A stretch of DNA of 64,000 nt from Chloropicon primus (taxonomy: Eukaryota). The notes beneath the pieces are model-generated. The model worked only from the letters and a program-made list of their open reading frames with translations, was not told where the DNA came from and made no database searches. Shown here piece after piece: positions 2,462 to 54,827 of this stretch. The stretch lies in contig CP060763.1 in the NCBI GenBank assembly GCA_023205875.1, forward strand, positions 62,001 through 126,000, in the 5' to 3' direction. The translations under genes and the position numbers were made by a program. Position 1 is the first letter of the stretch, and every line of letters begins with the position of its first letter.

Positions 2462-2907
2462 GGGGATGAATCATTGATGCAGGGCGAGGGTGAGGGTGGT
2501 GGGAGGGAAGGAGGCATGGGTGGACGCGTTGCTTCTTCCTCTTCCTCTTTCCAAGTAGTCCTCGTCTCTTTCAGAAAGAATCGTGGTGATGCAGGAGGAC
2601 CACCAAGGAGGAGGAGGAGGAGGATGGATGAATGGATTGTGGGGATGAATCATTGATGCAGGGCGAGGGTGAGGGTGGTGGGAGGGAAGGAGGCATGGGT
2701 GGACGCGTTGCTTCTTCCTCTTCCTCTTTCCAAGCAGTCCTCGTCTCTTTCAGAAAGAATCGTGGTGATGCAGGAGGACCACCAAGGAGGAGGAGGAGGA
2801 GGATGGATGAATGGATTGTGGGGATGAATCATTGATGCAGGGCGAGGGTGAGGGTGGTGGGAGGGAAGGAGGCATGGGTGGACGCGTTGCTTCTTCCTCT
2901 TTCCAAG
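2462..2907. repeat. Tandem array, 179-bp period, ~2.5 copies
   Basis: GGGGATGAATCATTGATGCAGGGCGAGGG starts at 2462, 2641 and 2820. Copies 1 and 2 differ at CCAAGTAG/CCAAGCAG. Confidence 0.95.
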
Positions 2908-3091
2908 GAGCCCTTACTTGCAAACTGGGAAGGTGATCGATGGTGGTCAACACACCAGCGCTATTCTTTGTCTACATCATCATTTGGTGTGCGTGACTCG
3001 TTACCTGCACGCTCCTTTGCTTGACTTTTATTGTTTACGTTACTATTTCACAGGTCGGGAGAGTCCAGTGTTGGACTGGCACGGCGTCCAG

Positions 3092-3864
3092 TCACCCGTC
3101 GTACCCCAAGTCCTCCTCCGTTGTCGTGGTGACTTCCTCGGACAGAACCCGCATGGTCGCCTCGGCGCTCACCATCATCCTCATCGCGACCTCCTCCTCC
3201 ACCGCGATCTCCTCCTCCACCGCGATCTCCTCCTCGTCCTCCGCGACCTCCTCCTCATCTTCCGCGACCTCCTGCACCGAGTAAAGCGGAGGCGGCGCGG
3301 AGGCAACGCTCCCTTGCTCCTCCTCCTGTTCCGCCCGAAGCTTGTAACGCTTCAGCCTGTTGGCAAGCTGGTACAATCCCTCGATGCCGCCCACCCTCAT
3401 GAGCATCTCCTCGTCCAGCATGTTGTCCTTGAAGAAGTACAAGGGCAAGAGAGAAGCGTACTCTCCCTCGGCCTCAAGAGCCAATGCTGTGGCCTCCTCG
3501 AGCGTCGTCGGCTCGGGCGCCTCCCTCGAGAGCCCCCCCCCCCGGTACATCGCTTCCTTCGCCTTCCGCAGCGCGCCGTCTTCATCAAGAAAAGAAACGA
3601 GGGGTCAGCGATGAGAAACGAGAGGTCATCGAGGTGACGCGGCGAGAGGACTGAGGACTGCCCACACCCGGGTTACCCACACTCACCTCGGACGATCTGG
3701 GAAAGGAACCCCCTCCCTCTGTGCGCTGCCGTGGCCTCGCAGTCCTCAGGTCCAACAACCACGAGGAACGCGAAGAGGAACACGAAGATGAACACCAAGA
3801 CCTCCACAAGTCTCGAGGACGATGTAGCCGTGGAGGAGGAGGAGTGCCACCATCGCGGTATCAT
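3092..3864 (-). CDS. Small putative secreted/membrane acidic protein, paralogue A; exons 3864-3687 and 3579-3092, ~221 aa
   Basis: Hydrophobic N-terminal stretch (LVEVLVFIFVFLFAFLVVVG). Phase-1 GTGAG intron 3686-3580 with a CTGAC branch-like site. Splicing gives RGRGFLSQIVR-DGALR in frame with the 3092..3550 ORF, which has a Glu-rich tail. Confidence 0.7.
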
Positions 3865-4776
3865 CTCTGCCCCCCTCTCCTCCTCTCTCTTCAGGGAGGA
3901 GAAGGAGAATAAAAAAAAAAAGCTTGTCTCAATTGCGGAGAGCGGCGAGTCCAATTGCAGTCCGAACCCCCTCCGGTCCACCCAGGCTCCCTCTCTTTCT
4001 CTCTCTCTGCTCCCTCTCGCCCGATGTCAGTCGCCGCTCGTCATGCCGTGTAGTCACCATGTAGTCATTGCCTCAAAGCCTTTGCCACATGGACCACAGC
4101 GCTGGATGAGAGAAGTAACTGCCCATGGAGGTGCTGCTGATGATGGTGATGGTGATGGTGATGATGATGGCGGGGAAGGAGGGGGACGGTGGGAGGTCGA
4201 AGGACAATGAATTCGTGCTCCTCTCCCTCTTTCCAAAGAACTCTCGCTTGATGGGGTAACCGGGAAAGAAAGTGATCAGGCCAAGGGGGGAGGAGGGAGG
4301 GTGATGGTGATGATGGTGATGATGATGGCGGGGAGGGAGGATTGGGAGGGGATTGTGCCTTGCATGGTCCCTTCCACTGGATCTTCATCCTTCTCCTTCC
4401 ACCTGCTCCTTCCAAAGAGAAGAGCCCTTTGATGGAGGGAGGGAGAGAAGGAGGAGGAGGAGGAGGCCACAACAATGAAGGAGCTTGCTTGCTCGCGTTG
4501 AAAGAACAATGCAATGTCATAAAAAAAAAAGATAAAAAAAACGTCCCGATCACGAGTCCCGATCCATTCCCTCCACCCGCATGCATCAACCTCTCCCTCA
4601 AGGTCTCTTCGGTCGATGCCTGCTTGTGGATGGGAGCGTCATCGGCGTTGGTGTCGGTGCCGTCACCTGGGCGCAAAAAAGGATCCTCAAAAATTTGCAC
4701 TGCCCCGGAATCCGAAGCGATTGCCTCCACCACCGCCACACCTTTGTCTCCCCCTCTCCCTCTCTCTCTCTCTCCC

Positions 4777-5345
4777 TCACCGACCACCCTCCTCCTCCTC
4801 CTCCTTTGCATGATCGGCAGGGGTCAACGCCGTTTGATCCAACGGGATCAGCACCAGGCCGCCCTCGGCCTCCTGGACCATCACCAGGCCGCCCGGAGCA
4901 CCGCCGCCGTCGTCCACGGCCAGGTGCTGGATGTCGCTCCCCCGCGGGCCGCTCGCGAGCGGGAGGAGGGACCGCAGGGCGTCTTCGTTAACGTCCTCGT
5001 GCCCCGCCCGGCGGTATCGAGCGGCGGCCCTCTTGACGCCGGCCGCCTTGGGGAGCAGCAACCGCAGGGCGTACTCGTCCAGGCCCTCGACCATGCGCAG
5101 CGCTCCATCTGCGCCAGGGAAAGATGAGAGGAAAGAAAAAAGTCAGGGCTCTGTGCTTGCGAGGCTCTCTTCCATCCGACTGCGTTCTGGCGCAAGCGTG
5201 CCTCCTCACCTCTCACGATCTGCGACAAATAGTCCCTCCCTCGGATCGCAGGAGCGTCGTCGCGCTCGCTCACGCAGGAGCAGCTCGAGCAAGCCATCCC
5301 CCACGCGAGGAGACCGCAGAGAAACCACGACAACCGCGGCATCAT
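4777..5345 (-). CDS. Small putative secreted protein, paralogue B; exons 5345-5210 and 5108-4777, ~155 aa (3' end uncertain)
   Basis: Signal-peptide-like MMPRLSWFLCGLLAWGMACSSC. Phase-1 GTGAG...CAG intron 5209-5109. Splicing gives RGRDYLSQIVR-DGALR in frame with the 4777..5094 ORF. Confidence 0.65.
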
Positions 5346-6238
5346 CTCTCTCCTTCGCAGCCCCTTCGACAACCTCGAAAGCGAGTGCGGCATGCAAATT
5401 GCGCGAAACCTTCCTTCTTCTGCGCGAACCTCTCGACCCTCCCTCGACCCTTTCTCGTGCTTCCGGCGGTCTCACGCCCACCTTATCGCCGAGCGATGAA
5501 GCCAACTCCACACAACAACCTCGTCGCCCACCCCCAAACCCAAGCGACCACTCTTTCGAAAGAGCACTGAGACCAGAGACGAAACCAGGAACACGAGATG
5601 CTCCGCCACAAACCTCCTCCCTTCTCCCTTGTCAAGGACTTGACCTCCTCGTCGTCCGTTTCCCTCGCTCGTAACGGTTTTTGGAAAGAAAAAAAACGAC
5701 GACGACCTCAGCCGTTACGTTCTCCTCCTCAGCCGTTACGTTACGGTTACGCCACGCGACGACGACGACGACGACGCCGGCGTCTGGTCTGGTCTGCGTG
5801 AGAGGGTGAGAGGCCTACCGCGGAAAGGAAAGGAAAGGACCACTGCCCTCGCCCTCGCCCTGGCGCTTCCTCCTCCTCTCTTGTCCTCGCCGTCGCCGAG
5901 CAAGCACAAGTCCTCTCGCTTCGTGTGTGGGCTCTTTCGAAAGAGCAAAGGGAGACGCTTCCCTTGAGACAAATCAAACGCTTCTCCGTCCCCTCTCTCT
6001 CCCTCTCTCTCCCTCTCTCTCCCTCGCGTCCTCCGCTCGCGTCCTCCGCCACAGCGCGCGCTTTTCTGTCTCAAATCGCGCGCCACGATCGACGACGTGG
6101 CCTTGGTAGAAGGTGAGGGAACGGCGACGGTGGAAAGGTTCAAATCGACGAGGGGACCGTCACGACGGGGAGGGGCTTCTCGAGAGCTTTCGAAAGAGCA
6201 CTCGCTCGTCCATTTTGGCGAAGATTGGAACGATCCAC

Positions 6239-6582
6239 GAAGAGGAGACTGACTTTGTGTCTTGCACTTTGCTCCTATGCTCATGGTCATCCTCCCTATT
6301 GGTGCTGGTTGTTCTGCACCGGTGGAAGGTTCGTGTGCACCGTGAAGAGGAGAGGAAGCGGCTTTCATCAAGCCCTCGCTCGCTCCGTTTTCATTTCAAG
6401 AAGAGGAGACTGACTTTGTGTCTTGCACTTTGCTCCTATGCTCATGGTCATCCTCCCTATTGGTGCTGGTTGTTCTGCACCGGTGGAAGGTTCGTGTGCA
6501 CCGTGAAGAGGAGAGGAAGCGGCTTTCATCAAGCCCTCGCTCGCTCCGTTTTCATTTCAAGAAGAGGAGACTGACTTTGTGT
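6239..6582. repeat. Tandem array, 161-bp period, ~2.1 copies
   Basis: GAAGAGGAGACTGACTTTGTGT starts at 6239, 6400 and 6561. Confidence 0.95.
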
Positions 6583-6693
6583 GTTTGCACTTTGATGGCT
6601 CATCCCTCATGCCTCATGGCCTCATGACTCCTTGCTCATCACGAAGGGTGTGTTGTGGATGTTGTGAAGGGGTGGGAGGTTTGTTCGCAGAGG

Positions 6694-7734
6694 ATGGCGA
6701 TGAGGAGGTCCAGACTTGTGAGCGCGGCGTGCGGGTCGGGGTGTCCCTTCGGAGGGGTTCGCCGGGGGAGGAGGGTGGAGAGGAAGCTCAGGCCGAGGAG
6801 GATGGTGTGTCGGAGTGGAGCCGGAGAGGGAGGGGAGCAGCCGGAGGAAGGGCCGAGGGAGCCGGAGGAGTCGGGGGACTACGCCTCGATGGAGGACTGG
6901 AGGTCCTTCAGAGCGCAGCTCATTCAGTCCGGGTTGAAGACGTCGGGGAGGAGAGAGGGCGAGCCTATGCCGACGACGCAGGGGGAAGGCCAAGAATCGA
7001 GCGAGGGGGACCCCAAGAAGGAGCAGGAGTCCAGGGATTTGCCATCGTCGTCGTCGATGTGGGCCCACGCCATTGGAAACCGGCCGGAGAAGGGCTGCCT
7101 GATCATCGCTCGGCCCGACGCCTTCCTCCAGTCGCAAAAGTACTTCCACGAGGCGGTGATATTCTTGGTGGACTACTCGCCGGAGAAGGGCGCGGTGGGC
7201 CTGATATTGAACAGGCCCACGCAGTTCACCCTGGGCGCGATCAGCTTCGACATCACCTCGCCGGAGGACGGCCAGGGCAAGATGCCCGAGGTGGAGGACA
7301 AGGACCTCGAGGAGAAGGTCAACATCCCGATGTTCCTTCGGGAGAATCGAGTCTACTTCGGAGGCGACGTCAAGAGCGCGGCCTCCACGCTGATGGCCGT
7401 CCACCCCTTCGACGAGACCATCATCCCAGATGCCCAAAAGGTCGTGGAGGGCGTGTACTGCAACGGCAAGTGGTTCGAGCTCGGCGAGGACAGGGGCCCC
7501 GCCGTGGCGATCGATGCTCCCAAGTACAAATTTTTCGCCCAGTACGCTGGGTGGGCGCCGGGACAGCTGGAGAGCGAGCTCGACACGGACCAAGTCTGGA
7601 TTGCGGCGGCATGCTCGCCGGAGCTCGTGCTCAAGCAGGTCATCCAGCTCCCCAAACCACTGTGGCGGGAGGTCTTGGAACTCATGGGAGGCGAGTACGC
7701 CACCATGTCGAAGGAGCAGTACGGCGAGCTTTGA
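6694..7734 (+). CDS. DUF179 (YqgE/AlgH-like) protein with an N-terminal extension resembling an organellar transit peptide
   Basis: DWRSFRAQLI, GCLIIA, YFHEAVIFL, GAVGLILNRP, VYFGGDV, FFAQYAGWAPGQLESEL and LWREVLELMGGEY match the plant/algal DUF179 pattern. Confidence 0.9.
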   Translation: MAMRRSRLVSAACGSGCPFGGVRRGRRVERKLRPRRMVCRSGAGEGGEQPEEGPREPEESGDYASMEDWRSFRAQLIQSGLKTSGRREGEPMPTTQGEGQESSEGDPKKEQESRDLPSSSSMWAHAIGNRPEKGCLIIARPDAFLQSQKYFHEAVIFLVDYSPEKGAVGLILNRPTQFTLGAISFDITSPEDGQGKMPEVEDKDLEEKVNIPMFLRENRVYFGGDVKSAASTLMAVHPFDETIIPDAQKVVEGVYCNGKWFELGEDRGPAVAIDAPKYKFFAQYAGWAPGQLESELDTDQVWIAAACSPELVLKQVIQLPKPLWREVLELMGGEYATMSKEQYGEL

Positions 7735-7821
7735 GCTGTTGTTTCTTTTTACATTACACACGGGCTGGGACCTTTGGTTGGCCTCCATCATTTAAGAAGT
7801 AACATTTCTCGACTTTGTTTT

Positions 7822-10096
7822 TTAGACTTTGGTGCACGACTCCAGGGCTTTCGTGAGCTTCTGCCTCTCGGCGTCATCCTTGAGCCACATCTCGATCATG
7901 ATCTTGTTCGCGTCTTGGATCTGGACGGGAAAGCCATTGGCAGAGGAGCCGAGGCCGATGATCTCCATCCCCGGGGTGATCCTGATCGACATGAATTCCC
8001 TCGAGCAAGTCAGGTCCTTGTAAATCACGAGCTGCTCATTGGCCAGCACGCAGTACCTCTCCTTGATCTGGTTCTTGAAGTACCCCCCCCTGGTGGTCAG
8101 CGGGCCCGTGTAGGTCCCCGAGGAGATGGTGTTCTGCCTGGACAGGGTCTTGGTCTTCTGCAGGGGAGGGGCGGGAGACGCGGGCGGGGAGCTAAGGTTT
8201 TTCCTCGACACCGTTCTCGGTAGCAGCTCATCACCTTCTTCGTTCAAGGCGGCCTTCACGTCCTGCACCTCGAAGGACTTCTTACTCTCCCGAGTCGTGG
8301 CATCTCCTGGTGCCGCATCATCACTACTGTCCCGCTCGGAACCGTCCGATCCACCTTGGGGCTCAGCCGTCCGGTTTCCTCCCGGGCCTGCTTGCTCCTC
8401 GTCCTCCTCCACTCCATCGCTCCTTTCCTGCTCCATGGCTTCCTCGAACTCCTCATCGTCCTCCAGCAGGCCCAGGTTGAACATCTCCAAGGAGATGTTC
8501 AGGGTGCCCCTCTGTCCGTACTCCACGCTGGAGAGGTCAAGCTCCAGCATGTGGGCCGTGCCGTCGAAGAGAGCCTCGAGGTCCACCACAGCTGACCCAA
8601 GGAGGGTGTTCTTTCCCACGATGTCGTGATCGAACACGGACAGCTTGACGGGCTTGTCCAAGTTTTGCAGCAAGAAAGTGAACTGCTCGTTCCACTTGGG
8701 ATTGCAAGTCATCCTCTTCACCTTGGTCTTCGCCCTCTTGTGACCCACATTGATGACCACGAAGGGGTCGCTCGTGTTCTTCCCAATCAAGTTCCGATCG
8801 GCGGCCGCGAGATTGTAGGCACGGAGGATCTCGATGTCGAGCTTCACCTTGGGCTCACCCAACGCAGCAGCATCTTCCACCCCCATCTCCTTACCGGTGT
8901 CAACGTTGATTATCTTCACGGCGGCGGCCTTCTCGTCTGGCTCCTCCGCGCTCATCTCGGCCAAGGGCACCTCGAGGACGTTCGGCAAAGCCAAGACCGT
9001 CAGTGCGCCCTTGACGAGGTCGCCGATCTGGTTGATCAGCGGCATCTGTGTGATATCCCCGAACAGCTTCGAGACGGGGCGAATCTGGAAGTCCAGATCA
9101 GGGAGAGTGGGGAGCGTGATGCCGAGCATGCCAACGTAAGGCGGCGCTCCCGTGAGATTGCTCAGTCGAATCCTGACGGTCCCCTCCAGGGAGAGCTTGC
9201 TGATGTGCAGGAAGAACGGCAGCTTCTCGAGCAAACCGGCGCTGATCTCGAATCTCATGTTCTCCGATGGAATGAACTGAATGTCGAGATCGATGTCGAC
9301 GCGGGACTCCTTCGAACCCTTTCTGGAAGGCCTCGAGGAGGTGGTCAAACGCCATGTGCTGCTTCTCGCTGTACACGTCCTCGCTGAAATCGCTGTACTT
9401 CTTCGAGCTCGCCTTGCCAGCCTTCTTCTTCGTCACCGCGACGTGCTCCTCGGGCAGGGACGTCCTGATGCGAAGAATTCGAAGGGGAATCTCTCCGAGG
9501 GACACGCTCTCCACTTTGAGTCTCTTGATCACCGACTGGGTCTTGAGGAACTCGTCGAAGATGAACTGAACGTTCTCCAGAACGATCTCGCTGACCATGG
9601 GCTCGATGGCGTTGGGCCAGAGCCTGACCATTGCTCTGTTCAGCCAAGCCGCGGTGTCTCCGATGGTGTACTGGTCATCGTCCACGATGAGGAGCCGCCG
9701 CAAGTAGCGCTCGATGATCAGCTTGTTCGCCAGCCTCTCCGAGTCCGTTGACTTTATGATTTCCAGCCAAGGCACGGCCACCACGAGCACCAACCAGAAG
9801 GGGAACCCCCAACGACCCCAAAGGTAGCACGTGACAACAATGCAAAAGAAGTGGACCAGGCTCGGCGAGTTGCTCAGGACGAGTGCCGCGAATTGCCTTG
9901 CCTTGACCTCCAGCGACTCTCCCTCGCTCCCTGTCCCAAGGTCATCTCCGCCCTTGTGACCCCTTGCACCAGCAGGGCTTCTCCTCGAGCTGGTGTTGGT
10001 CCGCTTCCCCGTCAGCCGGTCGATCTGCCTCCTCAGCGCGATGTTCTCCAGGCTGAGCTCGGACAGGATCCTCTTCGCCTCCTCGTACGTGTTCAT
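7822..10096 (-). CDS. Synaptotagmin/extended-synaptotagmin-like protein (TM hairpin, SMP, C2, C-terminal PH-like), with an apparent 1-nt frameshift near 9348
   Basis: TM segment, then SMP motifs (DTAAWLNRAMVRLWP; VSLGEIPLRI; ISKLSLEGTVRIRL; PDLDF). C2 domain (RAYNLAAAD..SDPFVVI..NPKWNEQFTF..VFDHDIVGKNTLLG). PH-like tail (KERYCVLANEQLVIYKD). Two overlapping ORFs join inside the SMP domain. Confidence 0.85.
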
Positions 10097-10143
10097 CTCG
10101 CTATTTCACAACAGCAAAAGGAGGCAGGAAGACCACCCGAACC

Positions 10144-10661
10144 TCGTCCTCCTTGTCCTCCTTGTCCTGGTGCCCAAGATACGAAACTTTGCCGACACCC
10201 TCTTGCCTTGAGGAACGAGAGGTGGTTCCACAACGATCAGGAGGGACTCTTTCACCGGTCCTCGCACTCGTGCCCTCCGTCTTGGACTCAACAACCGCCG
10301 TGTGAACGCAAACCCAACCCAAGGTCGTCCTCCTTGTCCTCCTTGTCCTGGTGCCCAAGATACGAAACTTTGCCGACACCCTCTTGCCTTGAGGAACGAG
10401 AGGTGGTTCCACAACGATCAGGAGGGACTATTGCACCGGTCCTCGCACTCGTGCCCTCCGTCTTGGACTCAACAACCGCCGTGTGAACGCAAACCCAACC
10501 CAAGGTCGTCCTCCTTGTCCTCCTTGTCCTGGTGCCCAAGATACGAAACTTTGCCGACACCCTCTTGCCTTGAGGAACGAGAGGTGGTTCCACAACGATC
10601 AGGAGGGACTATTGCACCGGTCCTCGCACTCGTGCCCTCCGTCTTGGACTCAACAACCGCC
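10144..10661. repeat. Tandem array, 181-bp period, ~2.9 copies
   Basis: TCGTCCTCCTTGTCCTCCTTGTCCTGGTGCCCAAGATACG starts at 10144, 10325 and 10506. Copy 1 differs slightly (GACTCTTTCACC vs GACTATTGCACC). Confidence 0.95.
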
Positions 10662-10933
10662 AATCCCTCCCTCCCTCCCTCCTAAGTTCCCCCTGAGTGA
10701 GTGAGGTTGACTGCCTTGAGGAGAAACGGGGGATTTATAATTTCACGATCGACGTGGTGCGTGGCGGAGAAGGGGCGAGCACTTGGAGAGGCTTGGGTCG
10801 CAAGGGACGGCGGAGAGCGTACCATAGAGGTCAACAGGTGGAAAGTAGACCTCAAGGGCTTTCGAACGAGCTCTTACTTGAGGGATTTCGACCACGGGAA
10901 GACACGCTTGCTCCAGGGGAGGAGACGGTGGGT

Positions 10934-11776
10934 ATGGCTGGAGCAGGCCGAAGGGGTTTGAACCTCGCGGTGGTGGCGTTGGGCGTTTTCCTTCTCGTCG
11001 GGAGGGACTCCTTGAACGACGTCTTCGCACCCATCATTAAGGAAAAATCATTCAGGTCCGATGGCCTCTTTCAAGTCGGGGCAAACTTGAAGGAGGTCTT
11101 CACGGGAGAAGCCATGCTGCAGAACTACATGGAGCAAATGTCCAGAGGACCTAAGTCCGTGCACATGTCATTCTGTGCCTCGTGAGGCTACTCCAAGCTG
11201 GCGGAAAACGTAAGAACAAGAAGAAGCCAATCATTCACTCACTCGTTCGTTCGTTCGTTCTCGTTCTCGTGGGTGGGACTCTGACTCTTGAGCTTGACTT
11301 GTCTCTCTGTCTCTTGTCTTTTGGTGGATGGATGGGTGATGACTGGCGTGTTTCATGGTGTGCAGTTGAAGCAGCAATACCTCCAAAATCATCCAGAGTT
11401 GGAGGTAACTTTTTCCATTTATCCCACTGCTCCTTGGAAGGAGAAGTTGGCCATGGTGATCAACGTCTTGTCGTGGGTCGCTATCGTGCTTTTGTTCTGG
11501 GGCGACTCGATATTTGCCAAGCTTGGCATGAGGCCGCCCGCCCTCTACGAGTTCTTCATGAACTTTGAGGACGTCAGGAACAGCAAGATGCTTGTCACCC
11601 TGGCAATATTCTTTTTGAACTCGTTCGCGCAGGGAAACTTGCACAAGACCGGAGCTTTCGAGGTCTACTACAACTCGACGCCAGTGTATTCGAAGCTCGC
11701 GCAGGGGGTGGGGAAGAGGGTGGTCATGAAAGACATGCTCGACGGTCTTGAGGCGGCGATGGGTGCCTCAAAGTAG
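10934..11776 (+). CDS. SELENOT: Selenoprotein T-like (Rdx family); exons 10934-11209 and 11366-11776, Sec at TGA 11183-11185, ~228 aa
   Basis: Signal/anchor N-terminus, then HMSFCAS-TGA-GYSK, the CxxU-GY motif of SelT. A phase-0 GTAAG...TGCAG intron is followed by YP, two hydrophobic segments and TGAFEVYYN..VYSKL. A SECIS lies downstream. Confidence 0.92.
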
Positions 11777-11925
11777 GACTGCGGCATCGGGGAGAAGCGC
11801 CCCGGGCTATCGGCGCCGAATCAAACTTGAGAGGGGCTGCACCGCCCTTTTTTGGTTCAAGGCGCCCGGGCTTTCCCGCCCGCTCCTTGTGGCGCACGCA
11901 CTCGCCATCCTTTGGTGTGCTTTGC

Positions 11926-12003
11926 TGGTGGGTTGATATTACATGACGAGCGGATTCTGAAACTTTCACAAAGTGGTTTCCCTCCGAAGAAGAAGAGCCA
12001 GGT
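11926..12003 (+). promoter_or_regulatory. SECIS element (form II) in the SelT 3' UTR
   Basis: ATGAC (11943-11947), 12-nt helix-II arm GAGCGGATTCTG, AAA, apical mini-stem CTTT-CAC-AAAG, return arm GGTTTCCCTC and CGAA (11985-11988). Folded by eye. Confidence 0.8.
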
Positions 12004-12320
12004 CCCGCAATTCTGGAATGGAGTCGGTGCCGTCGCTCGCTCGAGCGACGCGCTCCGGCTCGTTGCGGCCTGGAGACATGTTCAACAAGCAGCACTGGGT
12101 GCACACCCGAAGGAGAAGGCAGTCGTTTGCACGGGGACAGCGCGGGGGCACGCCCCCGGCGACCACCTTTCTATAATATGAACAAGATGCAAGACAAAAA
12201 GCTTTTGTTTACCCGAGATCTTTTCTTTCCCTTTCTATCCGCGGTGGCTTGGGGCCATCCCCCCCCGGTTTCCTCAAGAAACCACGCGGCCTCGCTCGCC
12301 CGCCGGGTGCACACACTTCC

Positions 12321-12923
12321 TCAGCCCAGGGACTTGATGAGCTTGTTCAGGTTCTGGACAAACTGCTCGCACTCGAACGGCTCGCCGACTGTGTACAGGG
12401 GGTTCTTGACGACGTACTCGCAGTACAGGTTGGAGTATATCTGCCACATGTGCTTCTCCAGGTTGCCGAGGTCCGTGCTCGTGTTCAGCACGATCTTGAT
12501 GCCGGAGGGCGAGTCCAAGTAGTGCAGCTTGTAGCAGTCCGTCGTGAACGACCGGAAGGAGCAACCCTCGCCGTGCGGAGTCGGCGCACCTAGAGGACGT
12601 TTCACCTCCCTGGATGCCAATCGTTAGAGGCAACATCACAAAGAAGAAGAAGAAGCAAGAACAAAAAGCAACCCGGTCAGTTCAGTCCGAGCGAACTGCT
12701 TTTTGAATTCAGTCGAGTTGAGTTGCCTTGGGTTGAAGAAGACTCACCTGGTGGGGTCGATGGCGGTGCAGACGTTTTTGAGACTGAACAGGAGTCCGAA
12801 CATCATCTTGGCGTCATCTACGAGGGTCCCCGCCCCGTCCTTGACATGCTTCGGCCGGGACCACTCCTGGTAGTGCAAGCACACCCCATCCCTGTTGAAG
12901 ATATACATGTTGTAACACACCAT
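12321..12923 (-). CDS. BET5: TRAPP complex subunit 1 (Bet5, sybindin/longin fold); exons 12923-12748 and 12609-12321, ~154 aa
   Basis: MYIFNRDGVCLHYQEW..KMMFGLLFSLK and SFTTDCYKLHYLDSPSGIKIVLNT..LYCEYVVKNPLY are Bet5/TRAPPC1 motifs. The phase-2 GT-AG intron keeps the frame. Confidence 0.92.
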
Positions 12924-12965
12924 GCTCTTCCTTCCTTCCTTCCTCGCTGGATGGAACCACAGTGA

Positions 12966-13066
12966 ACGACGCCGATGCCGATGCCGATGCCAATGAAGAT
13001 GATGATGAAGATGCCGATGAAGATGATGACGCTGGTGGCGATGCTGGTGGCGATGCTGGTGCCTGT
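12966..13066. repeat. Low-complexity GAT/GCCGAT/GGCGATGCTGGT micro-repeats upstream of BET5
   Basis: Directly visible tri-, hexa- and dodecanucleotide repeats. Confidence 0.7.
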
Positions 13067-14326
13067 CTTGATGCAAAGGAGGAAGAGAGTTCCAGTCCAA
13101 GGGATCACCTCTCTCTGGTCCTAAATCCTCACCAGAACGTCGTAATCTTTCGAGCGAGGGGTCAAACGAAAGAGAATGAGATGAAGATTATAATAATGAC
13201 CCTCAATCACTTCCTCCTTCCCCCGCCGAACGACAAACTCCCGCCGAACCACGCCGTCCTTTCCCTCCCTCGCCCTGGTTTGGCGCCAAACCGCTCGACA
13301 CTCTGAGTCAGGAAGAGTAACTTCACAACTGAATGGGTAAAATTGTAGGCACGATCCGAACAATTAACGTCAAAAAGAGAACCTTAATACGACGATGAGA
13401 GACGTCACATTCGAACGTCCCGTTTAATGTCTCTCATAAAACTAGGGATTTGAATGAAAATGATTTTGATTGTTTATGAGGGTTAGATATTCAAGTAGGA
13501 GACATTACCTTTCGAAAATGTCTCATGTAGAAATGGTCCCCTGAGATGGAAACACTACTGGGGACCCTCGTCGTTTGCCGCGGGGTTTGGTGGTTCGGCT
13601 TCTTTGGTCCGCGGCCTGGCCCTATTCCCTTAATCGATGCCAAGGTTTGCCTCGGAGACCGCGTCTTTCCCTCCGCCACCTTCAAAACCGCTTCCCTCCT
13701 CCTCCTCCTCACTCCTCTTTCTCCAAGGTGAAGCCGAGGTAAGGAATTCATTCCCTTCACCTTGCTTGCTTGAAACGACAACGACGGAGGAGAAAGGTCG
13801 AGTGAAGGATGGCATCACGATATTCTTCGTCTCTTGCTCTTTCCAAAGAGTGTACTCTTGTCGAATTCGACGCAGTGGAGAGGAATCCAGACCAGTGGAC
13901 TCGTCTTGGGTTCCCATCCCTTCCCTGGAACCCAAGACGAGTGAAGAGTGAAGTGAATGCCTCACTTCACTCTTCACTTCACTTCACTTCACTTCACTGC
14001 TCGGAAGACTGCAGGGAGGAACGAACCCGAAATGAACCTCGTCTCTTGCTCTTTTCGAAGCATGGGTCCCGAGGATGGTACTTTGTCCTGATACTGATAC
14101 AACTTTGTTTCCTGCAATGGCGTATGTTTCATGTTTCATGTTTCATGGTTTTCCAAAGGACAGACAGACAGGCACTGAGGTGTGAGGAAGCACAAGAGTG
14201 TGTTCGTTCGTGTCTGCTTGATCACAGAGGTTGGATCCATTGGTGTCTCGTGAGAACTCGAACTCGAACTCACCAACCCACGCCAACCCAAGCAGCTTGA
14301 GTTGTGTGTCAGCTTGACTTGTTCCT

Positions 14327-14370
<44 letters not shown>

Positions 14371-14622
14371 TGTGACGTTGCTGCTTGCTGGTGACATGAA
14401 TTGAATCGAATTGCGTCGTGTTTCGTTGTGTGAAAGAAAAGTATGAGTCTTGCCGTGGTTGCTTGGTTGGGTTGCGGGTCAACCTGAAGGAAGGGAAGGG
14501 AGACAGAAGGTATACGAGGGAGTAGGATGAGTTGTGAGGGAAAGGGTGTCCTGAGGGCACCAGCGAGGACGAGGATGGGGAGGAAATCGAGGAATGGTCT
14601 GAAGCAGGAGGGACGAAGGACC

Positions 14623-44600: not shown

Positions 44601-47600
44601 GGTGAGGCCCTCGGCAATGATGACCAGCATGACGTTGGTGGTGATATCTACTTGTCTGGTGGTCAGGCAGCCTCTGCCCGCGGTGGTGATATCGAATTCA
44701 ACACAGGATACAGTGAGTCCACCAACAGTGGCTCCATGCGATTGAGCACCGTTGACGCTGGTTCTTCTGGTGTGAGTGGATCCATGTCTCTCAAGACAGG
44801 CAGCACGACATCAGGAGAGTCTGGTGCGATTGCTCTTGAGACTGGTGAGGGTGTTGACGGTTCTGGTGGTGACCTTCGTTTCAAGGTTGGTACCGGTAAC
44901 TCTGGTGACGGTGGTGATATCCTGTTCAGGGCAGGTGAGACAACTGATGGTAACTCCGCTGGTGGCAAGATTGCACTCACTGGTGGCATGGGCTCTACTG
45001 TTGATGGTGGTGTTGGTGGAGACATCTTGTTGACTGGTGGCGAGGCCCTCGGCTTTGACGACGAGACTGACGTTGGTGGTGACATCTACTTGTCTGGTGG
45101 TCAGGCAGCCTCTGCCCGCGGTGGTGATATCGAATTCAACACAGGATACAGTCAATCCACCAACAGTGGCTCCATGCGATTGAGCACCGTTGACTCTGGT
45201 TCTTCTGGTGTGAGTGGATCCATGTCTCTCAGGACGGGCAACACCACATCAGGAGAGTCTGGCTTAATTGAGCTTGAGACTGGTCAAGGTGATGGAGGTT
45301 CTGGTGGTGACCTTCGTTTCAAGGTTGGTACCGGTAACTCTGGTGACGGTGGTGACATCCTGTTCAGGGCAGGTGAGACCACGGATATAGACTCTGCTGG
45401 TGGCAAGATTGCACTTAGTGGAGGCAAGGGCTCTAGTGATCACACTTATCATGGTGGTGTTGGTGGAGACATCGTGTTGACTGGTGGTGAGGCCCTCGGC
45501 AATGATGACCAGCATGACGTGGGTGGTGACATCTACTTGTCTGGTGGTCAGGCAGCCTCTGCCCGCGGTGGTGACATTGAATTCAAAACTGGATACAGTG
45601 AATTTAGTGACAGTGGCTCCATGCGATTGAGTACTGTCAACGCTGGTGACTATGGTGTGAGTGGCAATATCAGTATATCAACTGGCAACACCACATTAGG
45701 CGAGTCTGGCTTCATCGAGCTTGAGACTGGTCAAGGTGTTGATGGTTCTGGTGGCGACCTTCGTTTCAAAGTTGGTACCGGTAACTCTGATGACGGTGGT
45801 GATATGCTGTTCAGGGCAGGTGAGACTACCGATGCTGACTCTGCTGGTGGCAAGATTGCACTTAGTGGAGGCAAGGGCTCTAGTGATCACACTTATCATG
45901 GTGGTGTTGGTGGAGACATCTTGTTGACTGGTGGCGAGGCCCTCGGCAATGATGACCAGCATGACGTGGGTGGTGACATCTACTTGTCTGGAGGTCAGGC
46001 AGCCTCTGCCCGCGGTGGGGATATGGAATTCAACACAGGATACAGTCAATCCACCAACAGTGGTTCCATGAGATTGAGCACCGTTGACTCTGGTTTCTCT
46101 GGTGTGAGCGGATCCATGTCTCTTAGGACGGGTAACACCACATCAGGAGAGTCTGGCTTGATTGAGCTTGAGACTGGTGAGGGTGTTGGAGGTTCTGGCG
46201 GCGACCTTCGTTTCAAGGCTGGTACCGGTAATTCTGGTGACGGTGGTGACATCCTGTTCAGGGCAGGTGAGACCACCGATGCTGACTCTGCTGGTGGCAA
46301 GATTGCACTTAGTGGAGGCAAGGGCTCTAGTGAGTCCTCCGCTCATGGTGGTGTTGGTGGAGACATCGTGTTGACTGGTGGCGAGGCCCTCGGCAATGAT
46401 GACCATCATGACGTTGGTGGTGACATCTACTTGTCTGGTGGTCAGGCAGCCTCTGCCCGCGGTGGGGATATGGAATTCAACACAGGATACAGTCAATCCA
46501 CGGACAGTGGTTCCATGCGATTGAGCACCGTTGACTCTGGTTCTTCTGGTGTGAGCGGATCCATGTCTCTCAGGACGGGCAACACCACATCAGGAGAGTC
46601 TGGCTTAATTGAGCTTGAGACTGGTGAGGGTGTCGGAGGTTCTGGTGGCGACCTTCGTTTCAAGGTTGGTACCGGTAACTCTGGTGACGGTGGTGATGTT
46701 CTTATTGCTGCCGGTGAGACCACATCCAATTCTGCTGTCGGAGGTAGAGTTTCTGTGGTTTCTGGTGCTGCTTCTGATGGAGCTGGTGGAGACATTTCTC
46801 TGACAGTTGGTCTTGGAAATAGTGGCAAAGGTGGTGATGTTCTTATTGCTGCTGGAGAGACCACTGATGACGACTCCGCTGGTGGCAAGATTGCACTTAG
46901 TGGAGGCAAGGGCTCTAGCAATTCCTCTGATCATGGTGGTGTTGGTGGAGACATCTTGTTGACTGGTGGTGAGGCCCTTGGCAATGATGACCAGCATGAC
47001 GTGGGTGGTGACATCTACTTGTCTGGTGGTCAGGCAGCCTCTGCCCGCGGCGGTGACATTCATTTGTCTGGTGGTCAAGGTGCCCTTTCCCGCGGTGGTG
47101 ACATTGAATTCAAAACTGGATACAGTCAATCCACCAACAGTGGTTCCATGCGATTGAGTACTGTCAACGCTGGTCAATATGGTGTGAGTGGATCCATGTC
47201 TCTTAGGACGGGTAACACCACATCAGGAGAGTCTGGCTTGATTGAGCTTGAGACTGGTAAGGGTGTCGGAGGCTCTGGTGGCGACCTTCGTTTCAAGGTT
47301 GGTACCGGTAACTCTGGTGACGGTGGTGACATCCTGTTCAGGGCAGGTGAGACCACCGATGCTGACTCTGCTGGTGGCAAGATTGCACTTAGTGGAGGCA
47401 AGGGTTCTGATGAGTCCTCCGCTCATGGTGGTGTTGGTGGAGACATCTTGTTGACTGGTGGCGAGGCCCTCGGCAATGATGACCATCATGACGTGGGTGG
47501 TGACATCTACTTGTCTGGTGGTCAGGCAGCCTCTGCCCACGGTGGGGATATGGAATTCAACACAGGATACAGTCAATCCACGGACAGTGGCTCCATGCGA

Positions 47601-49361
47601 TTGAGCACCGTTGACTCTGGTTCTTCTGGTGTGAGTGGATCCATGTCTCTCAGGACGGGCAACACCACATCAGGAGAGTCTGGCTTGATTACTCTTGAGA
47701 CTGGTGAGGGTGTTGGAGGTTCTGGTGGCGACCTTCGTTTCAAGGTTGGTACCGGTAACTCTGGTGACGGTGGTGACATCCTGTTCAGGGCAGGTGAGAC
47801 TACCGATGCTGACTCTGCTGGTGGCAAGATTGCACTTAGTGGAGGCAAGGGCTCTAGTGATCACACTTATCATGGTGGTGTTGGTGGAGACATCGTGTTG
47901 ACTGGTGGTGAGGCCCTCGGCAATGATGATCAGCATGACGTTGGTGGTGACATCTACTTGTCTGGTGGTCAGGCAGCCTCTGCCCGCGGTGGGGATATGG
48001 AATTCAACACTGGATACAGTGAGTCCACCAACAGTGGCTCCATGCGATTGAACACTGTTGACTCTGGTTCTTCTGGTGTGAGTGGATCCATGTCTCTCAA
48101 GACAGGCAGCACGACATCAGGAGAGTCTGGCTTGATTGCTCTTGAGACTGGTGAGGGTGTTGACGGTTCTGGTGGTGACCTTCGTTTCAAGGTTGGTACC
48201 GGTAACTCTGGTGACGGTGGTGACATCCTGTTTAGGGCAGGTGAGACCACCGATGCTGACTCTGCTGGTGGTAAGATTGCACTTAGTGGAGGCAAGGGCT
48301 CTAGCAATTCCTCTGATCATGGTGGTGTTGGTGGAGACATCTTGTTGACTGGTGGTGAGGCCCTCGGCAATGATGACCAGCATGACGTGGGTGGTGATAT
48401 CTACTTGTCTGGTGGTCAGGCAGCCTCTGCCCGCGGTGGTGATATCGAATTCAACACAGGATACAGTGAGTCCACCAACAGTGGCTCCATGCGATTGAAC
48501 ACTGTTGACTCTGGTTCTTCTGGTGTGAGTGGATCCATGTCTCTCAAGACAGGCAGCACGACATCAGGAGAGTCTGGTGCGATTGAGCTTGAGACTGGTG
48601 GTGATTCGCTGATGAGTGGTGATGTTCACTTGTTTTCTGGAGATGTTTACGGTGGAAAGTCAGGTAATGTCGTTTTAGAAACTGGCGAATCTTCTGGCGG
48701 TAGAAGTGGAAGCATACAACTTCTTGCTGGAGTTAGTAGCTATGATAAGGGTGGTGATGTCGAGGTCAATGCAGGGCAATCAACATCAGACAGTGATGGT
48801 GCTGGCGGTGACATTTCCTTGACATCAGGCCGAGGACACAGGGGTGGAAAAGGTGGAGACTTAAATATTGTTGGAGGTATAAGTGGAGAGCTTTATGGAA
48901 GAGGAGGGGACGTTTCAATTGATGGTGGCCACAGTGAAAGTGGAGTGCATGGCCAAGTTCGAATTGGAACAAAGAGTGATGAAGTTTACATGGGTGAAAT
49001 TGACTACTCTTCAGATCTTTTCTTCTATGGGCACAGCTTTGCTTATGGAGCAATGAGTGTTGGAGAAGAAAGAGGTACACCGGTAACAGAGCACTTCTCG
49101 TACATGACGGAAGAAGTTACGATTGGTACTCTGTTGCCTTCTCAATCTGTATCCTTAGTTTTACAGGTTGATGGTGTGAGAGTGGAGGACAATGTGAGTG
49201 TAAACTTCAGTGGTAGACTTGGAGGAAGAATTATAATGTCTTCCTCTATCATTGCAGACGGCGAAGTCGAGATTAATCTGGTGCATTCAGGATCTCCACC
49301 TGTTCCCTATGACATACCTAGCGGTACCTTCAGGGTGAATGTGTTCCAGTATCGCGACTAG
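14623..49361 (+). CDS. Giant intronless putative secreted Gly/Ser/Asp/Thr-rich repeat protein, ~11,578 aa after removing two 1-nt insertions (~26683 and 36917)
   Basis: ORFs of 4058, 3466 and 4190 aa carry the same repeat and switch frame at single extra bases relative to the repeat consensus. (34739-2)/3 = 11579 codons. Signal peptide MAKSLLSGTYALTLCILVLLLSPTKVGA. Unique C-terminal domain ending TFRVNVFQYRD*. Confidence 0.88.
20340..48600 (+). repeat. Intragenic coding tandem repeat: 447-bp/149-aa basic unit, 900-bp modules and a ~7.9-kb higher-order duplication
   Basis: Offsets of homologous ORF-track entries: 447 (20945/21392; 37127/37574), 900 (34063/34963; 41957/42857), 1795 (24929/26724) and 7894 (33046/40940; 34063/41957). 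Confidence 0.97.
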
Positions 49362-50040
49362 ATCGTCTGAGCATGGCGGTGAGCTTTGTTGAGGCCTTGA
49401 TGGTATTTTGGACCGAGATTGGAGACGAGGCCTTGGTGATGCATGTTCCAGGGTCCCCCCTCGTCTCAAACCGACACGTGACTGGATTGCTTCCAGAATG
49501 CAAACACACAGAGGAAGCTTGTGCGACGCCTTTCCCCCATTTTTAAAAGGACTAGCAAAGTTTCTTCGGGCTGGCCTTCGAAGACGTTGTTTCCTTCCTG
49601 TTCCCCCATTTATTTTGGAAGAAGCAGTGGACTCAAAGGCCCAAGCTAGAAGTGCATTTCCTAGCGTGTTTGCGGTGTGAAGAACTGGGTGCTTACAATG
49701 CAGCTCAAGTACATAAGAATGCAGCTCAGCCGGACCATGTGTTTTGCGTATTTTATAGCATTGGCGGCTATCGAGAGAGAGAGAGTCAATGCAGGAAAGA
49801 AAAAAAAGAGAAAAAAAAGAAGCAAACGGGTCATCGTCGTATGACTTATTGTTTGCCTGCAAGTGTAATATAAACTATATCGATTACTATCATTCAATTC
49901 TCCTCTCCTTTTGTCTTGACAGCAAGTGTCATTCGAGGTTCATCGGGATTCATTCGTCAAGAGTAATTTGTATAGTTCTTTCTTTCTCTTCTATTTAGGA
50001 TGACCCTCCAACCTGTTGGTCGATTCATCATAAAAAGAAC

Positions 50041-50838
50041 TTAGGAAGTCTCAGTGGCCTTGAAGGCATCGAGGACGTTAACCTTGAGCACCATGTCAGC
50101 GAACTTGGTCCTTGTGATGCTGCCCTTCTGGATAATCCTTCCAATCCTGGCACTCTCCTTCTCGATGTATCCCTCTCCCTTGGCAATGATCTTAGTCATC
50201 AACAAGTAGTAGGTCTCCCCTTCAAGGTGCTTTTCAGTCTCCGCCTTGGCCTTGTTCAACAAAAACGCCTCCTTGTCATCCGACGCCATGAATTCTTGGG
50301 CAAGCTTGTCGAGGTCCTCGTGCCTTCCAACAAGCTTATCCTGAACGAGAGCGAAGGAAAAACGAGTCCAGGGCATGATACGACGAAGAAAAAGTTGAGT
50401 CAGTACCAAAGCGCAAGCAACGCCAAAGGAGGAGAGGCACGAGCCCCCCCCCATAGTAGTCTGTGAACGAACAAATTCTAGTCACGCACCTGCTCCACAA
50501 AGCCCTTCAACTTTTTGAACATCTCCTCAGCCGTCCTTGGCCCGTTGTAGTCAAATGCAGAGTCAGCCTCCTCGATGCCAATGCCCCTGGAAAGGATCTT
50601 CAAGGTCGGGAAGCCGGTCACACCGAAGGGCTCTCCGAGAGACCTGTGCTTGTCGCAGTCCGCCTTCACAACCTGCACGAAGTTCGCCGTCATCGGATCG
50701 TTCTGAATCATCTCCGCAAGCTTCGTGTACTCGGGGGTCAACCTCTTGCAGTGTCCGCACCACGGAGCGTAGAACTCCGCTATCGTGATCTTCATGCCAT
50801 TCAATACCTCCTTCACGTTCGAAGGATCTAACACAAAA

Positions 50839-50875
<37 letters not shown>

Positions 50876-51167
50876 AAACAAAAACAAAAACAAAAACGCG
50901 TCAGCCGCCACCACCACCACCGTTACCGTCACCTCTCTCTACGTGTGCGGAAGCGGAGAAGCGTCGTAGCCATGGCACGCCTTCCTTTCCTTGCTTTCCT
51001 CGCAACCCAACCCAGCCCAACCCAACCCAAATGGTCTTTCCATGGTCCTTACCGAGATCAATGACGCCTGGAATGGCAACAGAAGGGTCTTGCGCTTTGG
51101 CGACGTGAGGAGCCACCACCGCCAGCATGGCGAGGGTCACCACCAAGGTCTTCGTGCTGTGCTTCAT
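50041..51167 (-). CDS. Protein disulfide isomerase-like (signal peptide, one WCGHC thioredoxin domain, ERp29 C-terminal domain); exons 51167-51053, 50827-50490, 50340-50041, ~250 aa
   Basis: EFYAPWCGHCKRLTPEY and FGVTGFPTLK. The helical C-terminus (GRHEDLDKLAQEF..YYLLMTKI..GEGYIEKESARIGRI..NVLDAF) is typical of ERp29c. Both introns are GT-AG and phase-consistent. Confidence 0.9.
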
Positions 51168-51264
51168 CGTCCTCGTCCTCGTTCTCGTCGTCGTTCTCGT
51201 CCTCGTTCTCGTCCTCGTCTTCGTCTTCAGCCGTCAGAAAAAAAATCTTTTCTCTGCTCTCTCG

Positions 51265-51296
51265 AGGTTTTTAGGTTTTTAGGTTTTAGGTTTTAG
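51265..51296. repeat. Short interstitial telomere-like tract (TTTT[T]AGG x ~4)
   Basis: AGG TTTTTAGG TTTTTAGG TTTTAGG TTTTAG. Confidence 0.6.
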
Positions 51297-51301
51297 CGGA
51301 G

Positions 51302-52276
51302 TTTGATCTGTCCGTGTGGCTCTGGAAGGATTGTCCTGGCCAAGGGCAAGCCGGTGCACTCGAAGGGACGGGACAGGGAGGAGGAAGGAAGGAGGATACA
51401 ATTTGTATTCATTCATCGAGTCGTCACGAGTCCTTGCTTTCCCTGAGTTTTCTCTCTTTCAGGATGGAGTTTGGACTTTGGACTTTGATCCGTCCGTGTG
51501 GCTCTGGAAGGATTGTCCTGGCCAAGGGCAAGCCGGTGCATTGGAAGGGGTGGGACAGGGAGGAGGAAGGAAGGAGGATACAATTTGTATTCATTCATCG
51601 AGTCGTCACGAGTCCTTGCTTTCCCTGAGTTTTCTCTCTTTCAGGATGGAGTTTGGAGTTTGGACTTTGATCCGTCCGTGTGGCTCTGGAAGGATTGTCC
51701 TGGCCAAGGGCAAGCCGGTGCATTGGAAGGGGTGGGACAGGGAGGAGGAAGGAAGGAGGATACAATTTGTATTCATTCATCGAGTCGTCACGAGTCCTTG
51801 CTTTCCCTGAGTTTTCTCTCTTTCAGGATGGAGTTTGGAGTTTGGACTTTGATCCGTCCGTGTGGCTCTGGAAGGATTGTCCTGGCCAAGGGCGGGACAG
51901 GGAGGAGGAAGGAAGGAGGATACAATTTGTATTCATTCATCGAGTCGTCACGAGTCCTTGCTTTCCCTGAGTTTTCTCTCTTTCAGGATGGAGTTTGGAG
52001 TTTGGACTTTGATCCGTCCGTGTGGCTCTGGAAGGATTGTCCTGGCCAAGGGCAAGCCGGTGCATTGGAAGGGGTGGGACAGGGAGGAGGAAGGAAGGAG
52101 GATACAATTTGTATTCATTCATCGAGTCGTCACGAGTCCTTGCTTTCCCTGAGTTTTCTCTCTTTCAGGATGGAGTTTGGAGTTTGGACTTTGATCTGTC
52201 CGTGTGGCTCTGGAAGGATTGTCCTGGCCAAGGGCAAGCCGGTGCATTGGAAGGGACGGGACAGGGAGGAGGAAGG
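51302..52276. repeat. Tandem array, 182-bp period, ~5.5 copies (one unit shortened to 160 bp)
   Basis: TTTGATC[TC]GTCCGTGTGGCTCTGGAAGG starts at 51302, 51484, 51666, 51848, 52008 and 52190. The fourth unit has a 22-bp deletion. Confidence 0.96.
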
Positions 52277-54802: not shown

Positions 54803-54827
54803 TGAAGGAAAAGATCGAGAATCGAGG

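Follow-up and report, generated by a model that had tools for sequence, protein, structure and literature searches.

Four short tandem arrays of 161-182-bp period in non-coding DNA of Chloropicon primus and a likely genome-wide gain and loss of about 180 bases

Background

Our interest in this stretch of Chloropicon primus DNA (the window, 64,000 bp at its full length) was aroused by an earlier note describing four tandem arrays with periods close to one nucleosome repeat. Nucleosome length is a familiar property of satellite monomers (171 bp in alpha satellite, 178 bp in Arabidopsis) and is usually explained by selection, either for packaging or for a role at the centromere. Here, a variety of sequences, each from a single locus, occur at nucleosome length in two to five copies with no evident centromere near, and a culturable alga with a 17-Mb genome makes the choice between mutation bias and selection for monomer size directly testable. 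The question raised by this locus is what gave four different non-coding sequences so similar a period.

Results

Tandem repeats were located over the whole window by TRF together with an exact self-match scan at lags of 10-3000, and both confirmed the four arrays with their described periods and the single 160-bp unit (Table 1). The arrays measure 344-975 bp, contain 2.1-5.4 near-identical copies and lie within 400 bp of start codons. Array 1, followed to 2901, holds 2.46 copies with 1/261 mismatches, its end at 2907 being reached across a 6-bp gap; array 2, followed to 6582, holds 2.14 copies with 0/183 mismatches, and array 3 holds 2.86 copies with 2/337. The short unit of array 4 (51848-52007) arose from a 22-bp deletion between AAGGG repeats, and the outer copies of this array have variants in common that are absent from its inner copies. 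Partial copies of 22-156 bp at the array ends conceal where the original junctions lay. Array 4 also adjoins a telomere-like tract; the telomere unit of C. primus is given as CCTAAAAA in the portion of PMC6731263 drawn on here. According to the 86 TRF rows, these arrays are the only non-coding tandem repeats in the window with a period of 40-500 bp, the other such periods all being coding (45 and 447 bp in a giant ORF, 147 bp in a kinesin gene). The chance of four periods falling this close together within 40-500 bp is 4e-4 to 2e-3 under four null shapes, uncorrected for the choice of this window among many.

Table 1 Positions of the arrays and related features, counted from the first letter of the window
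Feature	Position	Strand	Details
Array 1	2462..2907	.	179-bp unit, 2.5 copies; breaks at 2490 and 2872 in X1, X2
Net 186-bp deletion allele	3167..3358	.	non-repeated, probably coding DNA; joint 3166 to 3359
Decayed two-copy repeat	4127..4470	.	lag about 160-179; related to array-1 unit
Decayed extra copy left of array 2	6128..6216	.	carries palindromic motif; score 39
Array 2	6239..6594	.	161-bp unit, 2.1-2.2 copies; TRF, self-match, junction contig
Decayed extra copy right of array 2	6585..6708	.	score 37 after shared 33 bp removed
Array 3	10144..10661	.	181-bp unit, 2.9 copies; breaks at 10173 and 10632 in X1, X2, X4
Telomere-like TTTTTAGG tract	51265..51296	+	abuts left edge of array 4; TRF
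Array 4	51302..52276	.	182-bp unit, 5.4 copies, one 160-bp unit; TRF and self-match

The possibility that the repeats were an assembly artefact, which the earlier note had allowed for, is contradicted for arrays 1-3 by short-read assembly graphs. In the DNA runs X1 and X2, contigs stop precisely where these arrays begin and end, and depth within the arrays is 1.6-3 times that of the flanks. Array 1 reaches a depth of 412 in X2 (against about 140), and the junction of array 2 is present there in a loop contig of 191 bp that spans 6392-6582 at a depth of 233, compared with about 143. Pieces of array 3 have a depth of 5-6.5 against 2 in X4, a run in which array 2 appears one unit shorter, an ambiguous reading at a depth of 2. 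The window also carries a deletion allele in DNA that is not repeated. Its joint, with 6 letters between the two sides, was found in X1, X2, X5 and X6, and its depth of 60-66 in the DNA runs is about half.

The gene context proved to be as first described. Arrays 2, 3 and 4 each lie between divergent genes, and array 1 has on one side the 3' end of a minus-strand gene and on the other the start of its neighbour, a coiled-coil gene on the same strand whose ATG (2065) is 397 bp away. The ATG (6694) of a DUF179 gene follows array 2 at a distance of 100 bp. Array 3 precedes an SMP/C2 gene (minus) by 48 bp and an Rdx-family gene (plus) by about 270 bp; array 4 precedes a thioredoxin/ERp29 gene (minus) by 135 bp and an NYN nuclease gene (plus) by 355 bp. 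In the runs guessed to be RNA, the Rdx gene is covered from about 10763-10823, beyond array 3; one run of this kind extends into array 2, and contigs cannot fix start sites. The suggested enrichment at promoters is unsupported, because 7639 of the 9478 intergenic bases in the window (81%) are upstream of genes anyway, giving a probability of 0.42 that all four arrays would be so placed by chance, and because all five periods would shift the frame in coding sequence.

As a stand-in for a genome-wide repeat histogram, we used Supplementary Data 8 of PMC6731263, which lists 221 heterozygous indels in C. primus, 73 of them measuring at least 100 bp; the lengths were transcribed by hand, and the transcription reproduces the paper's count of 73. 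Sizes of 160-195 bp account for 25 of the 73 (median 180, SD 8) where 7-11 are expected, with a scan-corrected p of 2e-4 to 4e-3 over eight null fits; the neighbouring bins hold 7 (124-159) and 8 (196-231). The genome-wide peak at 160-185 bp anticipated from the window is likewise present, with 20 of the 73 inside it against 5.5-8.3 expected. The 25 peak indels comprise 16 insertions and 9 deletions, are spread over 12 of 20 chromosomes and do not form one family by eye. They are standing variants, already filtered by selection, and as single units they may be tandem gains or losses. Several larger indels (336, 361, 386, 559 and 665) appeared by eye to be 2-4 tandem copies of 166-193-bp units; the 340-375 bin holds 4 indels against 2 in each neighbour, and exchange also explains multi-unit tandem indels. 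By eye, the table also contains tandem units of about 72, 100 and 110 bp, and 5 of its indels measure 210-219 bp. Probes of 12-13 letters from the four arrays gave 0 matches to the table on either strand. Every one of the 221 calls is heterozygous and has reads supporting each allele, so homologues differ in copy number.

Attributing 180 bp to one nucleosome is an assumption carried over from other eukaryotes, because our literature search found no published nucleosome map or repeat length for Chloropicon; the main text of the indel paper (PMC6731263) nowhere mentions nucleosomes. The proposed link to Dnmt5 linker methylation gained no clear support. CpG showed no periodicity at 160-200 bp in about 32 kb (block shuffles, p 0.27), a length of sequence whose power is uncertain, and PMC12636532 (section 16) places the linker 5mC of algae within gene bodies rather than at start sites. 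DNMT5 is not named among the entries listed from the gene table (Supplementary Data 2), and our literature search found no paper naming both 'Chloropicon' and 'DNMT5'. Among ten composition classes, G+C (broad, 190-240, p 0.01) and GA/TC (180, p 0.02) stood out, both uncorrected.

Tandem non-coding RNA genes were rejected on 0 Rfam matches in the window at the gathering score and on folds no better than shuffles (z -1.44 to +1.62; 150 nt of each unit, both strands). Introner- or MITE-type dispersed elements were rejected as well: no terminal inverted repeats were found at both unit ends in five regions, the longest pairs shown being 71-87% low-complexity, and by depth arrays 1-3 do not occur in many dispersed copies, high copy number being confined in this comparison to a portion of the decayed repeat around 4215. 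Metagenome contigs scanned for the motif gave 0 matches, and a protein-based metagenome scan found no tandem duplications of lag 40-1000 in 5 loci (19 kb, too little short-read sequence to be informative).

Discussion

The four arrays are genuine head-to-tail copies of local non-coding DNA in Chloropicon. We conclude, with a probability of roughly 55%, that they likely stem from a genome-wide mutation process of gain and loss in steps of about 180 bases, probably with one nucleosome per step. A one-nucleosome mutation process is favoured because all four non-coding arrays have periods of 161-182 bp, because the indel peak arises at independent loci, and because the window itself carries the net 186-bp deletion allele. 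The initiating lesion would be nicks or breaks on opposite strands in two neighbouring linkers, where fill-in and joining would duplicate the DNA between them and trimming of the ends would delete it. Equal sizes would result if a nucleosome-sized Okazaki fragment slipped or if an excised circle of nucleosome size were put back, and these routes are indistinguishable here. Unequal exchange or slippage between the copies would then change their number, with inner copies homogenised and outer copies decaying; exchange fits the variant pattern of array 4 and the decayed flanks of array 2, which give this step its outline. Finally, events in coding DNA would be removed by selection, leaving intergenic survivors that are mostly upstream of genes because most intergenic DNA of this compact genome is so placed. 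An adaptive role is not needed for the arrays, and the idea that promoter spacing is adaptively tuned gained no support.

An unlikely account, which nevertheless survives best among the alternatives, is that promoters here were assembled out of an ancient dispersed repeat, about 170-180 bp long and composed of a purine-rich tract and the palindrome CTCTTTSSAAAGAG, whose spaced remnants seed unequal exchange, so that the period comes from the ancestral unit and is not set anew by chromatin. The unit of array 1 can be aligned to the decayed pair at 4127-4470 with a score of 77-97; the pair itself scores 83 against a background maximum of 39, or 32 without its TGA run (reached by 4% of background). 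Part of this pair is high-copy (summed contig depth 6562 at 4215 in X2, against about 140) and by eye resembles a 274-bp deletion of the published table. Two motif matches, at 4227 and 4406, have a spacing of 179. Both decayed copies flanking array 2 outscore every one of the 514 background windows from intergenic DNA and of the 500 shuffles, and the exact palindrome core occurs in six table rows (153, 171, 183, 274, 361 and 386). Some units may thus have inherited their length, as the kinship of array 1 with a partly high-copy repeat suggests. Against a common origin, units 2, 3 and 4 show no mutual alignment (p 0.12-0.27), arrays 1-3 are locus-specific by depth, and the exact core is missing from 23 of the 25 peak indels (present in 2), its density in the table sequences being about equal to that in intergenic DNA of the window by a rough count. 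Much of the similarity consists of simple GGA/TGA runs. Matches between the four units are microsatellite-like and at most about 30 bp, and shuffle p values of 0.01-0.025 (uncorrected) in three of six pairs all involve the GGA/CCT-rich unit 1. The description of the units as unrelated holds among the four, although a decayed relative of array 1 lies 1.3 kb from it. No decayed copies were found at six of the eight array flanks. A wider scan for decayed local repeats, suggestive only, gave 13 matches from 377 queries against about 9 expected, at 8 loci with lags of 153, 158-169, 175, 182, 207-212, 29, 62 and 390, two of them in one duplicated segment.

It is also quite unlikely that selection acts as the size filter, with indels of all sizes arising and only whole-nucleosome changes near start sites preserving phasing and being tolerated. 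This is a neutral version of the earlier note's tuning of spacing in whole-nucleosome steps. The distances of 48-397 bp between the arrays and a start codon agree with it, as does the standing, rather than newly mutated, state of the tabulated heterozygous variants; a model in the part of PMC13344279 consulted predicts effective selection on 100-bp indels in Chloropicon, with steps at nucleosome gain or loss. The local excess (25 against 7 in the equal-width bin below) would however demand strong purging of most neighbouring sizes even in heterozygotes. The deletion allele is present in probably coding DNA too, and array 4 tolerates a phase-breaking 160-bp unit and partial copies.

We consider it improbable that excision and return of nucleosome-sized circles, with rolling-circle copying, is the main route over in-place repair. 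Gains and losses of equal size (16 and 9), jumps of 2-4 copies and partial end copies would suit such a route, and small circles elsewhere have a 180-bp periodicity (review PMC11660679, in part). Circles in Chloropicon are nevertheless purely hypothetical, return to the same locus requires homologous recombination on a very short substrate, and unequal exchange is the simpler account of multi-unit jumps. Least probable is an artefact of assembly or variant calling, or chance: the window shows errors of an assembly type (a surplus base near 9316 that X1, X2 and X4 lack, and two frame breaks in the giant ORF), its assembly may derive from the best DNA runs, read support covers arrays 1-3 and the indel lengths are hand-transcribed, but array copies are distinguished by point changes, X4, a separate sample, branches at array 3 too, and the graph junctions, indel count and two-allele reads given above argue the same way.

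The duplication and deletion process favoured here has partial likenesses elsewhere. Nucleosome-length satellites share the monomer length (about 150-190 bp, head-to-tail) and the homogenised inner and decayed outer copies. They form long arrays of one family, kilobases in length and in gene-poor DNA, whereas the Chloropicon arrays have 2-5 copies of different single-locus sequences beside genes, aligning with one another only in simple runs, and are more like satellite seeds than satellites. Introner elements and linker methylation in Micromonas and other compact algae have in common with the process proposed here that nucleosome linkers shape heritable sequence change (PMC9860276 and PMC12636532, as excerpted). 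Introners, however, are dispersed transposons spliced from genes, and linker 5mC lies in gene bodies in these excerpts; the Chloropicon arrays are duplicated locally and have no terminal inverted repeats, and no CpG periodicity was seen. Paired opposite-strand nicks have been shown to yield tandem duplications of the intervening DNA in the portion of PMC5730883 used here, which cites Schiml 2016 and Vaughn and Bennetzen 2014 for plants. The likeness lies in the head-to-tail copying of unique local DNA and in duplications and deletions from one kind of lesion; in that system sizes are set by engineered nicks or are small and unpeaked, whereas natural sizes in Chloropicon peak at about 180 bp. 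MicroDNA is of unique sequence, has a periodicity of about 180 bp ascribed to cutting between nucleosomes and is described as enriched at 5' UTRs (PMC11660679, in part). It is extrachromosomal and mostly somatic, whereas the Chloropicon arrays are heritable and chromosomal and no circle was observed. A size peak of one repeat across unrelated loci, the mark of rearrangement templated by nucleosomes, is found in the indel table, the repeat length being assumed.

Conclusions

It is possible, at somewhat less than even odds, that mutation in Chloropicon is quantised by nucleosomes, with unique DNA, one nucleosome length at a time, being gained by duplication or lost by deletion from linker to linker at hundreds of loci, intergenic DNA continually rebuilt in 180-bp steps and each event a potential seed of a nucleosome-length satellite. 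If true, chromatin spacing would leave a heritable mutational signature across the whole genome, which would offer a mutational answer to the frequent match between satellite monomers and the nucleosome. The promoters and 5' regions of a compact genome would also be subject to a further, size-specific class of structural mutation.

The arrays and their structure

Tandem Repeats Finder and an exact self-match scan reproduced the four head-to-tail arrays at the positions and periods claimed in the earlier note, and the near-identity of copies held in arrays 1-3, where copies differ at 0-2 letters. In array 4, the 160-bp unit corresponds to a 182-bp unit that has lost 22 bp between short repeats, and it does not form a size class of its own. 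Across the 86 Tandem Repeats Finder rows for the window, no other non-coding repeat of period 40-500 bp was detected, and the chance of four periods so close is 4e-4 to 2e-3 (uncorrected for window choice).

Coordinates of the arrays and of other features in the window
Feature	Position	Period or length (bp)	Copies	Remarks
Array 1	2462-2901	179	2.46	To 2907 across a 6-bp gap
Array 2	6239-6582	161	2.14
Array 3	10144-10661	181	2.86
Array 4	51302-52276	182	5.4
Decayed pair	4127-4470	~160-179 (lag)
Deletion allele	3167-3358	186 (net)		Frame-preserving; in non-repeated DNA
CTCTTTSSAAAGAG matches	2161, 2545, 2724, 2897, 4227, 4406, 5551, 5932, 6185, 11430, 13837, 54328
Telomere-like TTTTTAGG tract	51265-51296			Abuts left edge of array 4
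Duplicated segment	52301-52562; 54544-54805	260	2	96% identity; copies 2243 bp apart
Giant reading frame (+)	14527-49361	~35 kb		447-bp (149-residue) Gly/Ser/Thr-rich repeats
SMP/C2 gene	~9316			Position is that of one extra base, which divides the gene into two ORFs
Rdx-family gene (+)	10934-11776			Intron 11210-11365; in-frame TGA within a C-x-x-stop motif
Kinesin gene repeat	59588-59872	147 (49 residues)	2	78% identity; in coiled-coil part

The first and last copies of array 4 hold common variants that are missing from its inner copies. Decayed copies flank array 2 left and right, and each scores higher than all 514 intergenic background windows; none were seen at the remaining six array flanks. 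These copy variants and decayed edges are consistent with exchange between copies and decay towards the margins, which also accounts for the partial copies of 22-156 bp at the array ends. Because the arrays end in partial copies, the original junctions are hidden. No known RNA gene matched the units, which fold no better than shuffled sequences, and terminal inverted repeats were not found in them. The arrays resemble satellite seeds, yet they do not belong among the satellites, nor among dispersed elements or RNA gene arrays.

The fifth, decayed pair aligns with the repeat unit of array 1 at scores of 77-97, with much of the similarity in simple runs. One part of the pair is high-copy, with a summed depth of 6562 at 4215. 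The palindrome CTCTTTSSAAAGAG has 12 matches at no more than 2 mismatches in the window (11 of them intergenic) against 1.3 expected. It may serve as a binding site for a promoter factor or be what is left of a dispersed repeat.

Read support

Assembled contigs of 8 sequencing runs (17 listed) were compared over 1-12500, which covers arrays 1-3. Runs X1 and X2 come from one sample that may be the window's own source; X4 is a different sample. The contigs of the DNA runs X1 and X2 end at 2490/2872, 6553 and 10173/10632, and such breaks at array edges are expected, since a graph of 31-letter words must branch where reads hold a repeat junction. X2 further yielded a 191-bp contig over 6392-6582 (161 + 30) at depth 233 versus ~143, and its depth over array 1 reached 412. 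In X4, whose depth is only 2, the graph also branches at array 3 and the inner pieces reach depth 5-6.5; array 2 is one unit shorter there, which at such depth may be either a true allele or a lost junction. The contig breaks, the junction contig and the raised depth support arrays 1-3 as true repeats rather than an assembly artefact. The 186-bp deletion allele was present in X1, X2, X5 and X6; its depth in the DNA runs is roughly half, and two of the runs that show it are presumed to be RNA.

Gene context and neighbouring features

Divergent gene pairs flank arrays 2-4, and array 1 is upstream of a minus-strand gene, in line with the earlier note. The DUF179 protein beside array 2 has 63% identity to a Chloropicon laureae protein. 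One copy of the 260-bp duplicate lies upstream of a zf-C3HC gene and the other directly after array 4, upstream of a NYN nuclease gene; the latter is possibly a borrowed promoter. The TTTTTAGG tract, the only tandem tract of this motif in the window, matches the C. primus telomere unit; it could be the scar of a repaired break or a promoter element of the telo-box type. Together with the GC content, this match suggests that the window comes from C. primus or a very close relative.

Two frame shifts, which may be assembly errors, split the giant frame into three ORFs (4058, 3460 and 4149 aa), and three pieces of it had no Pfam match. The extra base in the SMP/C2 gene is likely an assembly error, because X1, X2 and X4 are without it. 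The Rdx-family gene is likely a SelT-like selenoprotein.

An indel size peak in C. primus

Supplementary Data 8 of PMC6731263 holds 221 heterozygous PacBio indels of at least 20 bp. All lengths were transcribed by hand; 73 are at least 100 bp, the count that the paper states. Counts per 36-bp bin were 17 (88-123), 7 (124-159), 25 (160-195), 8 (196-231) and 1 (232-267). The 25 peak indels (median 180, SD 8; 16 insertions and 9 deletions) occur on 12 of 20 chromosomes; power-law or exponential models fitted to four size ranges predict 7.3-11.0 such indels (scan-corrected p 2e-4 to 4e-3). The 160-185-bp range set beforehand by the earlier note likewise showed an excess, with 20 indels against 5.5-8.3 expected (scan-corrected p 2e-4 to 1.3e-2). 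This peak is one of indel lengths; tandem structure was read by eye in larger indels, where those of 336, 361, 386, 559 and 665 bp comprise 2-4 tandem copies of 166-193-bp units. Further indels, also judged by eye, are tandem copies of ~72, 100 or 110 bp, or coding repeats.

In table sequences covered up to 400 letters per cell, probes from arrays 1-4 matched no row, so the size peak does not depend on the loci from which the idea arose. The exact core of CTCTTTSSAAAGAG occurs in 6 rows, of which 2 belong to the 25 peak indels. The word nucleosome has 0 uses in the main text and two PDF supplements of PMC6731263. The table also contains three insertions of ~2.66-2.71 kb on chromosomes 3, 6 and 17, two of which start with identical sequence by eye; they are probably an active mobile element.

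Chromatin and mechanism

The arrays are real and their size is supported genome-wide; we infer the mechanism, with its link to chromatin drawn from size alone. CpG periodicity at 160-200 bp was absent in ~32 kb (p 0.27), and 2 of 10 composition classes gave p 0.01-0.02, uncorrected. DNMT5 had no match in the searched portion of the C. primus gene table. According to PMC12636532, 5mC in compact related algae marks gene-body linkers and is missing near start sites, while 6mA marks the first two linkers there; Dnmt5 linker methylation, invoked in the earlier note, is therefore a weak candidate to explain what happens next to start sites. Full-text searches of the openly accessible literature, judged by titles, abstract openings and selected passages, turned up no report of an indel or repeat peak of nucleosome size in Chloropicon, nor of such a signature in general.

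The proposed promoter enrichment was not supported: all four arrays lie upstream, but 7639 of the 9478 intergenic bases already fall in the upstream class under approximate gene models, which gives P = 0.42. An inherited promoter module of 170-180 bp is an unlikely source of the arrays. Every array period would shift a reading frame, which suffices to explain their absence from exons. A selection filter passing phase-preserving indels seems quite unlikely. Excised circles returning to the chromosome (compare PMC11660679) are improbable, and artefact or chance is highly improbable.

We favour, at a probability of roughly 0.55, a chromatin-templated mutation process. It would work like two known processes, microDNA sizing and paired-nick duplication, and paired nicks have been shown to duplicate the DNA lying between them (PMC5730883). 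Lesions in adjacent linkers would duplicate or delete the DNA of one nucleosome, exchange among copies would then change copy number, and selection would clear such events from exons.
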